Below are positions 23,345 to 24,175 of a stretch of DNA of 64,000 bases, piece after piece. Within the stretch, counting starts at the first letter, position 1, and each line of letters starts with the position of its first letter. The position numbers were made by a program, and so were the translations under genes. Location of the stretch: the sequence record NC_054903.1. One strand, 5' to 3'. This DNA is from Enterobacteria phage GiZh. Under the pieces are notes generated by a model that was not told the DNA's origin, did no database searches, and was given only the letters and a program-made list of their open reading frames with translations.

Positions 23345-23420
23345 TGGTCGAGGCAGTAGGGATCGAACCTACGACCTAGGACTTAGAAGGTCCTTGCTCT
23401 TCCTTCTGAGCTATGCCTCG
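23345..23420 (-). tRNA. tRNA-Arg (anticodon UCU)
   Basis: Acceptor CGAGGCA/TGCCTCG, anticodon stem-loop AGGAC-CTTCTAA-GTCCT, T-arm GTAGG-TTCGATC-CCTAC, CCA encoded. Confidence 0.82.
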
Positions 23421-23424
23421 GATT

Positions 23425-23499
23425 TGGCGGACGTGATAGGATTCGAACCTATAACCAATCGCTTAACAGGCGATCGCTCTGCCATTGAGCTACACATCC
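23425..23499 (-). tRNA. tRNA-Asn (anticodon GUU)
   Basis: Sequence GGATGTGTAGCTCAATGGCAGAGCGATCGCCTGTTAAGCGATTGGTTATAGGTTCGAATCCTATCACGTCCGCCA. Confidence 0.82.
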
Positions 23500-23503
23500 A
23501 AAT

Positions 23504-23590
23504 TGGTGGGGAGTGATGGAGTCGAACCACCCGAGTCGCAATGACAATGGATTTACAGTCCACACCGCTACCTCTACGGGATAACTCCCC
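23504..23590 (-). tRNA. tRNA-Tyr (anticodon GUA), class II
   Basis: Acceptor GGGGAGT/ACTCCCC, anticodon stem-loop GTGGA-CTGTAAA-TCCAT, variable arm TGTCATTGCGACTCG resembling bacterial tRNA-Tyr, T-loop TTCGACT, CCA encoded. Confidence 0.75.
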
Positions 23591-23602
23591 TAATTCATAA
23601 TT

Positions 23603-23677
23603 TGGTGGCCCTGGGTGGAATTGAACCACCATCTGGCGATTATGAGTCGCTTGCTTGAACCTTCCAGCTACAGGGCC
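23603..23677 (-). tRNA. tRNA with anticodon CAU (Ile with modified C34, or Met)
   Basis: Acceptor GGCCCTG/CAGGGCC, anticodon loop CTCATAA, T-arm GGTGG-TTCAATT-CCACC, CCA encoded; starts 1 nt after tRNA-Thr. T4 has an Ile tRNA at this position (memory). Confidence 0.75.
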
Positions 23678-23678
23678 T

Positions 23679-23754
23679 TGGTGCTGATTGACGGAATCGA
23701 ACCGCCGACCTTCTCATTACAAGTGAGTTGCTCTACCTACTGAGCTAAATCAGC
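23679..23754 (-). tRNA. tRNA-Thr (anticodon UGU)
   Basis: Acceptor GCTGATT/AATCAGC, D-arm GCTC-AGTAGGTA-GAGC, anticodon loop CTTGTAA, T-loop TTCGATT, CCA encoded. Confidence 0.85.
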
Positions 23755-23759
23755 AAAAC

Positions 23760-23849
23760 TGGCGGAGGCGATAGGATTTGAACCTATGAGTCGCCGGAGC
23801 GACTGCCGGTTTTCAAGACCGGTGCATTAAACCACTCTGCCACGCCTCC
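23760..23849 (-). tRNA. tRNA-Ser (anticodon UGA), class II
   Basis: Acceptor GGAGGCG/CGCCTCC, anticodon loop CTTGAAA, long variable arm, CCA encoded; starts 2 nt after tRNA-Pro. Confidence 0.85.
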
Positions 23850-23851
23850 AG

Positions 23852-23925
23852 TCTCCATACAAGGATTTGAACCTTGGACCTCCTGATCCCAAATCAGGCG
23901 CTCTACCAAACTGAGCTACACGGAG
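23852..23925 (-). tRNA. tRNA-Pro (anticodon UGG)
   Basis: Sequence CTCCGTGTAGCTCAGTTTGGTAGAGCGCCTGATTTGGGATCAGGAGGTCCAAGGTTCAAATCCTTGTATGGAG; CCA not encoded. Confidence 0.88.
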
Positions 23926-23935
23926 TAAATTAAAT

Positions 23936-24009
23936 TGGAGCGGATAATGAGAATCGAACTCACATCATCAGATTGGAAGTCTGAGGTAATGCCATTATAC
24001 GATATCCGC
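23936..24009 (-). tRNA. tRNA-Gly (anticodon UCC)
   Basis: Acceptor GCGGATA/TATCCGC, anticodon stem-loop TCAGA-CTTCCAA-TCTGA, CCA encoded. Confidence 0.85.
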
Positions 24010-24014
24010 AAATT

Positions 24015-24101
24015 TGGTGCGAGAAGTGGGACTCGAACCCACAAGGAAATCATTCCGCAGCATTTTAAGTGCTGTACCTTTACCAATTTGACCATTCTCG
24101 C
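24015..24101 (-). tRNA. tRNA-Leu (anticodon UAA), class II long variable arm
   Basis: Acceptor GCGAGAA/TTCTCGC, T-loop TTCGAGT, anticodon loop CTTAAAA, CCA encoded; starts 1-2 nt after tRNA-Gln (dimeric precursor arrangement). Confidence 0.85.
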
Positions 24102-24102
24102 G

Positions 24103-24175
24103 CTGGGAATAAAGGACTCGAACCTTTGCATCCTGGAATCAAAATCCAGTGCCTTACCAACTTGGCTAATTCCCA
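24103..24175 (-). tRNA. tRNA-Gln (anticodon UUG)
   Basis: Hand-folded cloverleaf: acceptor TGGGAAT/ATTCCCA, T-arm AAAGG-TTCGAGT-CCTTT, anticodon loop TTTTGAT; CCA not encoded. Ends +/-2 nt. Confidence 0.85.

Follow-up and report, generated by a model that had tools for sequence, protein, structure and literature searches.

The segB-free tRNA cluster of Enterobacteria phage GiZh: a probable RB3/T2-type allele of the T-even tRNA operon

The tRNA genes of bacteriophage T4 are transcribed polycistronically and give rise to dimeric precursors, which are matured by RNase P and 3' nucleases, by CCA addition and by the modification enzymes of the host. According to the annotation of the T4 genome (NC_000866) there are eight of these genes, and segB, which encodes a GIY-YIG homing endonuclease, lies between those for tRNA-Ile and tRNA-Arg; the series is followed by two stable RNA genes, rnaD and rnaC. 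Phages T2L, RB1 and RB3 lack segB (Brok-Volchanskaya et al. 2008, Nucleic Acids Research (NAR) 36:2094; PMC2330249). The present work concerns the tRNA cluster of Enterobacteria phage GiZh, analysed in a window of 64,000 nucleotides from sequence record NC_054903.1, to which all positions refer. The window is that of a Tequatrovirus, a T4-like phage, and its cluster is very probably the RB3/T2-type, segB-free allele of the T-even phage tRNA operon.

The cluster and its T-even counterparts

ARAGORN detects exactly ten tRNA genes in the whole window, all of them on the minus strand between positions 23345 and 24175. A search with Rfam family RF00005 returns the same ten, all above the gathering score of 29 bits (30.2-74.1 bits); nine of them score 57-74 bits (E 1e-9 to 2e-14), whereas tRNA-Tyr, at 30.2 bits, is borderline. 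The ten genes are real. They are arranged in the order Gln(UUG), Leu(UAA), Gly(UCC), Pro(UGG), Ser(UGA), Thr(UGU), a tRNA with anticodon CAU, Tyr(GUA), Asn(GUU) and Arg(UCU), and the spacers between them, measured from the ARAGORN ends, are 0-12 nt long, the Gln-Leu, Pro-Ser and Thr-CAU pairs abutting with 0-1 nt. An initial annotation of this DNA had folded ten minus-strand tRNAs with the same coordinates, order and anticodons, on which the two programs agree with it, and had described the same three pairs (the last of them as Thr-Ile) as almost abutting, as the ARAGORN ends confirm. The CCA end is encoded in eight of the ten genes, those for Gln and Pro being without it. No segB or other open reading frame (ORF) is listed inside the cluster, only short frames that overlap the tRNAs, and blastn of the window against the T4 segB region gave no match. 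There can be little doubt that the ten are functional tRNAs of the known RB3/T2-type operon.

The cluster occupies the same position as in T4, between the trna.2 and e.x genes. Homology to T4 (blastn) extends from 24400 to 23666 at 97%, taking in Gln through Thr, and again from 23348 to 22996 at 94%, taking in rnaD, rnaC and the terminator. The Gln-Leu, Pro-Ser and Thr-CAU pairs abut in T4 as they do here, and the Gln-Leu arrangement is that of the T4 dimeric precursor. Between the two homologous segments, a 317-bp block carrying the CAU, Tyr, Asn and Arg genes stands for the 845-bp Ile-segB-Arg block of T4. T4 lacks both Tyr and Asn and has a different tRNA-Gln anticodon arm. The initial annotation was thus right that T4 has eight tRNAs and segB, as the T4 record shows, and that the place of segB is taken by Tyr and Asn. 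It had missed, however, that the CAU and Arg genes are different alleles as well: the former is identical to T4 tRNA-Ile at 51 of 82 positions (~62%) and the latter to T4 tRNA-Arg at 51 of 83, with stems unrelated to those of its T4 counterpart. The Ser and Ile genes of T4 are without an encoded CCA, whereas tRNA-Ser and the CAU tRNA of GiZh encode it, so that GiZh should need host 3' trimming and CCA addition less than T4 does.

The closest arrangement is that of RB3 (AJ884578), in which the ten tRNA genes, rnaD and rnaC follow one another in an order identical to that of GiZh, without ORFs and without segB. Over the 1,156 window bases that align, the two are ~98% identical, and the Tyr and Asn genes are 100% identical. 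The two differ by scattered point changes, at several positions in rnaD and, between CAU and Tyr, by an indel of 3 nt in the spacer. T2L (AJ880101; this record and that of RB3 stem from Brok-Volchanskaya et al. 2008) is likewise without segB. Its CAU and Asn genes are identical to those of GiZh, and its Tyr and Arg genes differ by 1 nt each. It has only nine tRNAs, with an ORF, trna.1, at the place of Thr and a second, trna.2, between Arg and rnaD, and unlike GiZh it carries the T4-type tRNA-Gln allele. T6 (NC_054907) has Gln, Leu, Gly, a Pro/Thr chimera, CAU, Tyr, segB and Arg, without Pro or Ser; segB stands where GiZh has Asn, and the Ile and Arg alleles are of T4 type. The annotated tRNA-Thr of T6 is itself the chimera, with the 5' acceptor strand of tRNA-Pro and the rest of tRNA-Thr, which leaves an acceptor stem that cannot pair. 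It appears that T6 lost the 3' part of Pro, all of Ser and the 5' part of Thr by recombination across the common D-arm sequence GTAGCTCAGT.

Matches to the cluster region are found in 1,056 phage records, 462 of which cover at least 80% of it, and the Tyr-Asn segment is complete in 394. By comparison, segB is found in 183 records and is full-length in 126; all of these counts are of database records, some of them GenBank/RefSeq duplicates. The GiZh form is therefore commoner than the T4 form, and it is T4 that is the exception. The tRNA-Asn allele recurs at 95% identity or more in 350 records, a complete T2 genome among them, and at 99% or more in 315. Several relatives have insertions of 0.4-1 kb in the cluster region. 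The arrangement is already known: it is present in GenBank, was published in 2008 for RB1, RB3 and T2L, and is annotated in hundreds of genomes, so the unusualness implied by the initial annotation does not hold.

Table 1. Features of the tRNA unit and its surroundings in the GiZh window
Feature	Position	Strand	Remarks	Source
Promoter match (sigma-70-like), candidate only	24282..24310	-	TTGAAT-17-TATCAT; ~107 nt upstream of tRNA-Gln	
tRNA-Gln(UUG)	24102..24175	-	no encoded CCA; abuts tRNA-Leu	ARAGORN; Rfam 67.4 bits
tRNA-Leu(UAA)	24015..24101	-	long variable arm; CCA encoded; 86/87 identical to T4	ARAGORN; Rfam 56.9 bits
tRNA-Gly(UCC)	23936..24009	-	CCA encoded; 73/74 identical to T4	ARAGORN; Rfam 63.3 bits
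tRNA-Pro(UGG)	23851..23925	-	no encoded CCA; 1 nt from tRNA-Ser	ARAGORN; Rfam 66.8 bits
tRNA-Ser(UGA)	23760..23849	-	long variable arm; CCA encoded	ARAGORN; Rfam 62.6 bits
tRNA-Thr(UGU)	23679..23754	-	CCA encoded; A27xA43 mismatch	ARAGORN; Rfam 72.9 bits
CAU-anticodon tRNA	23603..23677	-	best read as tRNA-Ile2; CCA encoded	ARAGORN; Rfam 59.9 bits
tRNA-Tyr(GUA)	23504..23590	-	phage-type; CCA encoded	ARAGORN; Rfam 30.2 bits
tRNA-Asn(GUU)	23425..23499	-	discriminator G73; CCA encoded	ARAGORN; Rfam 74.1 bits (best of ten)
tRNA-Arg(UCU)	23345..23420	-	T2L/RB3 allele; C1-G72 start; CCA encoded	ARAGORN; Rfam 68.1 bits
Block without T4 homology	23349..23665	-	317 bp; segB-free allele	blastn, window against T4
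rnaD (species 2 stable RNA) homologue	23223..23343	-	ends +/-2 nt	mapped from T4 and RB3 annotations
rnaC (species 1 stable RNA) homologue	23077..23216	-	tRNA-like T arm, GGTTCGAATCC at 23101; ends +/-2 nt	mapped from T4 and RB3 annotations
Hairpin resembling an intrinsic terminator	23005..23028	-	10 bp, 7 of them G-C, then TTTTT; conserved in T4	

Structure and lineage of the individual tRNAs

In the GiZh tRNA-Tyr the 7-bp acceptor stem is perfect, the D stem is of 4 bp and the anticodon and T stems are of 5 bp each; A73 and a CCA end are present. Its Rfam alignment shows a register slip at the junction of the acceptor and D arms; the low score is due to this register problem, which arises from a 4-nt connector between the two arms, and is not the mark of a pseudogene. 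In phage-type tRNA-Tyr the connector is 4-5 nt long, as against the canonical 2 nt. Seven such tRNAs were segmented by hand: those of GiZh, T2L, T6, a V5-like phage, a Klebsiella Karamvirus, an E. coli plasmid and T5/BF23. All seven have a 7-bp acceptor stem, in which the only departure from perfect pairing is one G.U pair in T5/BF23. The 4-bp D stem reads CCGU/GCGG, or CUGU/GCAG in T5, a double compensatory change, and closes a canonical D loop of 7-8 nt in every sequence. Four covarying versions of the 5-bp anticodon stem are found, so that in the seven replicons double compensatory changes preserve both D and anticodon stems. The variable arm, of 15 nt, is invariant, and the 5-bp T stem and discriminator A73 are present throughout; the variable arm is 2 nt longer than that of the host tRNA-Tyr. 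A D-stem register with the canonical 2-nt connector was rejected, as it gives mismatches in all seven sequences, whereas the CCGU/GCGG register is conserved and covaries.

The GiZh tRNA-Tyr is identical to that of T6 at 85 of 87 positions and to that of Shigella phage Sf24 at 86 of 87; the Tyr(GTA) and Asn(GTT) genes in the Sf24 record are tRNAscan-SE predictions. The outcome named in the initial annotation as refuting, a failure of tRNAscan-SE to call Tyr or Asn or their scoring as pseudogenes, is to that extent not borne out. Comparison with T5/BF23 finds identical variable and T arms, a connector that is likewise of 4 nt and a D hairpin of the same design, together with different acceptor, D and anticodon stems; the tRNA-Asn of T5/BF23 has stems otherwise unrelated to those of GiZh. 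The same tRNA-Tyr design, with invariant variable and T arms, is seen in T-even phages, V5-like phages (naam), Karamvirus (VPA32) and T5/BF23. To judge from the sequences, this implies a single tRNA-Tyr lineage that spread horizontally or is of common origin.

The same type of gene is also carried, at 94.3% identity to that of GiZh, by 273 E. coli plasmids, which are ~70-112 kb in size and belong to 269 of 5,426 complete genomes. In one of them, pEC881_2 (NZ_CP019027), a cluster of Asn(GUU), Tyr(GUA), Thr(UGU) and Ser(UGA) adjoins DNA ligase and integrase genes. These plasmids look like phage-plasmids that carry the tRNA species targeted by the defence nucleases PtuAB and AriB. A DNA search of the same 5,426 E. 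coli genomes found no chromosomal match to the GiZh tRNA-Tyr, and one with tRNA-Asn found nothing in E. coli beyond weak matches to tRNA-Thr. Recent capture of either gene from the host was rejected on these grounds.

The tRNA-Asn gene bears on the fate of the locus. The 27-bp preferred recognition site of SegB has been mapped wholly inside the T2L tRNA-Asn gene, and in crosses of T4 with T2L 99.6% of the progeny received segB and lost a T2L region of ~1,250 bp with Met(CAU), Tyr, Asn and Arg (PMC2330249). The GiZh gene is identical to this T2L gene at all 75 positions and holds the SegB core GGTTCRANTCC in its T arm as GGTTCGAATCC (23439-23449). The locus is therefore a ready recipient site for SegB, and, by analogy with the crosses, a phage bearing segB, such as T4, should convert the GiZh allele in co-infection and delete Tyr and Asn. 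A search (blastn-short) for remnants of Tyr and Asn beside segB in T4 and T6 found only generic tRNA motifs; the direction of replacement is thus not readable from scars. Across the window, eight of the ten tRNA genes contain the core motif, as do the tRNA-like T arm of rnaC (23101, minus strand) and one other site (48902, minus strand).

The CAU tRNA is best read as a lysidine-type tRNA-Ile2, which should, if modified as such, read AUA. Its best match in E. coli is an annotated tRNA-Ile (81.6% over the full length), its 19-nt anticodon arm is identical to that of host tRNA-Ile(CAU), and its acceptor starts GGCCC (C4-G69, C5-G68); the elongator gene metT differs in both acceptor start and anticodon arm. 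The identity tRNA-Met, given by ARAGORN and by an old GenBank label, was rejected on this comparison. Ikeuchi and co-workers are said to have identified, in 2005, the C4-G69 and C5-G68 acceptor pairs and features of the anticodon arm as determinants for TilS.

Two alleles of tRNA-Gln, that of GiZh and that of T4, differ only in the anticodon arm, their acceptor, D and T arms being identical. Double compensatory changes exchange pairs 27-43, 28-42 and 30-40, and at loop positions 32 and 38 GiZh has U/U and T4 has C/C. The anticodon loop of the GiZh allele, UUUUGAU, is that of host E. coli glnU, from which the T4 loop differs. The GiZh allele is found at no less than 99% identity in 289 phage records and the T4 allele in ~127. 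This dimorphism may be a footprint of selection by some nuclease that attacks tRNA arms. In tRNA-Thr, GiZh and phage sb3 share an A27xA43 mismatch, which tops the anticodon stem, where T4, T6 and RB3 have C27-G43.

Translational supply and counter-defence

It is proposed that the locus works as one minus-strand unit, comprising ten functional tRNA genes, then rnaD, rnaC and a terminator. By analogy with T4, RNase P and the 3' processing enzymes of the host would cut polycistronic precursors, the host CCA-adding enzyme would complete tRNA-Gln and tRNA-Pro, and host enzymes would add the modifications, among them lysidine on the CAU tRNA, leading to the reading of AUA. The Gln, Leu, Gly, Pro, Ser, Thr, Ile2 and Arg tRNAs would decode codons ending in A, which are far more frequent in the AT-rich phage than in E. 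coli. The Tyr(GUA) and Asn(GUU) tRNAs would most likely sustain decoding both at high demand and when defence nucleases destroy the host tRNAs.

Codon usage was compared between the 67 window ORFs of at least 100 amino acids (aa) and 42 annotated E. coli K-12 genes. The A-ending cognate codons of the eight tRNAs shared with T4 are enriched 1.6-8.2x in the phage ORFs (CAA 1.6x, CCA 1.8x, UUA 3.0x, GGA 3.5x, ACA 3.6x, UCA 3.7x, AUA 5.0x and AGA 8.2x). This is not so for the Watson-Crick codons of the other two tRNAs, UAC (0.9x) and AAC (0.6x), whose anticodons GUA and GUU duplicate the only host species for these amino acids. Instead, UAU (2.4x) and AAU (3.1x) are commoner in the phage ORFs, and because of their heavy use Tyr (1.68x) and Asn (1.55x) are the two most over-represented amino acids. 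Lys is over-used equally (1.55x), yet the window has no tRNA-Lys. A demand specific to late genes was considered and rejected: on the plus strand, taken as late by analogy with T4, and on the minus strand, Tyr makes up 4.34% and 4.39% and Asn 6.24% and 5.34%, respectively, with no strong bias. Compensation for codon usage, as suggested in the initial annotation, is thus borne out for Tyr and Asn at the level of amino acids and fails at that of their Watson-Crick codons. Plain supply probably adds to the fitness value of both tRNAs. The roles in supply and against PtuAB and AriB are not mutually exclusive.

For tRNA-Tyr, a counter-defence role has been studied in close relatives. On infection, the Septu system EcB88 (PtuAB) cuts the tRNA-Tyr of E. 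coli in its variable arm, at C48/A49 (Chihara et al. 2026, PMC13096335). T4, which is without tRNA-Tyr, is strongly restricted by Septu, T6 is intermediate and T2 is resistant. T6 deleted for its tRNA-rich region is more sensitive, over-expression of T6 tRNA-Tyr, which was also detected as such and appeared relatively unstable, rescues plating, and T6 escapers amplify a 718-bp unit with tRNA-Tyr and segB (PMC13096335). The tRNA-Tyr of T5 neutralises retron-Eco7, which has the same effector, PtuAB (Azam et al. 2024, PMC11555353). By sequence, the GiZh tRNA-Tyr belongs to this T6/T5 phage-type family, with which it shares the variable and T arms, the C48 position included. Reasoning from these relatives, it is rather likely that tRNA-Tyr gives GiZh a measurable advantage against PtuAB-type defences. 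GiZh, being free of segB, could not escape in cis by the SegB-driven amplification seen in T6. The suggestion in the initial annotation that phage tRNAs may replace host tRNAs cleaved by anticodon nucleases therefore stands for Tyr as regards replacement, shown in T6 with Septu and in T5 with retron-Eco7, and needs correction as regards the enzyme, since PtuAB cuts in the variable loop and is thus not an anticodon nuclease.

As to Asn, a defence that cleaves tRNA-Asn(GUU) does exist, which gives that part of the suggestion some ground. AriB, of the PARIS system, cuts host tRNA-Asn(GUU) between positions 40 and 41, after the motif U36-A-A-U39, and the T5 variants of three tRNAs, Lys(UUU), Thr(UGU) and Asn(GUU), together abolish PARIS (Belukhina et al. 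2025, PMC12409363). Positions 36-41 read U-A-A-U-C-C in host asnT, U-A-A-G-C-G in GiZh, U-A-A-G-U-U in T5/BF23 (also with G39) and U-A-A-C-C-A in pEC881_2 (with C39), whereas the Sf24-type sequence, a minority Tequatrovirus allele, is U-A-A-U-C-A and keeps the preferred AriB site. This second tRNA-Asn(GUU) allele, ~79-80% identical to that of GiZh, is found at the same position in Sf24, MN04 and BCH953P2. The GiZh tRNA-Thr reads U36-A-A-U39-G40-A41, against U-A-A-U-C40-A in the host; all phage tRNA-Thr alleles have G40 where host thrU has C40, adjoining the cleavage position. Both GiZh tRNAs therefore differ from the host targets at or next to the AriB site, Asn by G39 and G41 and Thr by G40, and for Asn the pattern would be consistent with escape from AriB. 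Whether tRNA-Asn gives a measurable advantage against AriB-type defences is nevertheless doubtful.

Several points weigh against a counter-defence role, or against parts of the scheme as a whole. The expression, aminoacylation and modification of these tRNAs in GiZh are read across from relatives, and the codon comparison draws on no more than 67 ORFs of the window and 42 genes of E. coli. The T6 tRNA-Tyr is itself cut by Septu (PMC13096335); protection is therefore dosage-dependent, and a single copy gave T6 only intermediate resistance. The resistance of T2 was reported without being ascribed to tRNA-Tyr (PMC13096335), and an attribution of it to this gene was discarded here, the two being kept as a correlation only. 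T4 and T7 were rescued from PARIS without the T5 tRNA-Asn (PMC12409363). The prime target of AriB is tRNA-Lys(UUU), which T5 carries and of which neither ARAGORN nor Rfam finds a gene in the 64-kb window; the set of AriB-insensitive tRNAs is thus incomplete, and tRNA-Asn alone would not defeat PARIS. Resistance of the GiZh tRNA-Asn to AriB is predicted from just two positions, 39 and 41. Nor does the promoter scan lend support to the proposed unit, its two sigma-70-like sites comparing with 4.0 expected from shuffles, which is no better than chance.

The amino-acid data, moreover, fit supply without any defence role, and the most serious alternative is that the two tRNAs are kept only since the proteome needs ~1.6x more Tyr and Asn. 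Supply is the prevailing textbook view for phage tRNAs (PMC13096335), and the excess of both amino acids, like the raised use of UAU and AAU, agrees with it, being present in early-strand and late-strand ORFs alike. Such an explanation, however, leaves the equal over-use of Lys without a tRNA-Lys, and T4 does well with neither gene. Enrichment is seen for the codons of the other eight tRNAs but not for UAC and AAC, and the experiments with T6 and T5 reveal a benefit of tRNA-Tyr that depends on the defence. The recurrence of the phage-type tRNA-Tyr in unrelated phage groups and on plasmids also suggests a portable, selectable function. Supply alone is thus possible, although it is the less likely account.

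Far less probable is that Tyr, Asn or both are non-functional passengers, whether pseudogenes, relics of linkage or a mere target for recombination and homing endonucleases. The near-threshold Rfam score and non-canonical connector of tRNA-Tyr could be taken in that sense, as could the instability of the T6 tRNA, the targeting of the Asn gene by SegB and the dispensability of the cluster in T4-type phages (PMC2330249). Against this, the stems are intact, with correct anticodons, A73 in Tyr, G73 in Asn and encoded CCA; tRNA-Asn has the best Rfam score of the ten; both genes are unchanged in RB3, and the Asn allele is nearly invariant across the 315 records already mentioned. The stems of tRNA-Tyr covary across seven replicons, and the near-identical tRNA of T6 rescues infection when expressed. 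A recent and unusual acquisition specific to GiZh, finally, might be supposed from the lack of Tyr and Asn in T4 and from the surrounding 8 kb, which no record in the collection matches above ~98%, but it is already refuted by the identical architecture of RB3, by the same alleles in T2L and T2, by the hundreds of records with a complete Tyr-Asn segment or at least 80% of the region, and by the publication of 2008. A role in sustaining decoding, both under high demand and under attack on host tRNAs, remains the preferred reading.

A wider scheme may be drawn from these observations, although it is unlikely to hold as a whole. In it, the T2/RB3-type tRNA-Asn, with G39 and G41, would be insensitive to AriB and the Sf24-type sensitive, and SegB homing, which would strip phages of Asn and, in the case of T4, of Tyr too, would conflict with counter-defence, which may explain the sensitivity of T4 to Septu; the anticodon-arm alleles of tRNA-Gln may likewise reflect selection by nucleases.

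Flanking features and significance

The rnaD and rnaC homologues follow the tRNA genes in the same unit and had been overlooked in the initial annotation. In Rfam, neither matches a family at gathering score, and they were identified only through homology to the annotations of T4, T2L and RB3. The hairpin beyond rnaC is the probable 3' end of the tRNA/rnaD/rnaC unit. In RB3 and T2L, e.8 lies ~283 nt after rnaC, whereas GiZh has there, ~120 nt downstream of rnaC, a 157-aa ORF (22481-22954, minus strand; phrog_2280, of unknown function), which seems to be an additional variable gene next to the tRNA unit. It starts MKSYAQFLNE, like the MKTFKEF N-termini of two upstream ORFs (MK(S/T)(Y/F)..F), namely 25189-25488 and 25499-25756, both on the minus strand and matching PHROG families of internal virion/head proteins. 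N-termini of the MKTFKEF type near the cluster are presumably capsid-targeting-like.

The cluster of GiZh is an ordinary one, and work on close relatives has already dealt with what its tRNA-Tyr does. The value of annotating it is that it marks GiZh as a carrier of the segB-free, full ten-tRNA allele. From this it may be predicted that GiZh would tolerate PtuAB-type defences, such as Septu and retron-Eco7, better than T4 does, and that the block would be vulnerable to SegB-driven conversion in co-infection. The behaviour of the tRNA-Asn towards PARIS AriB offers a further prediction that is cheap and testable.

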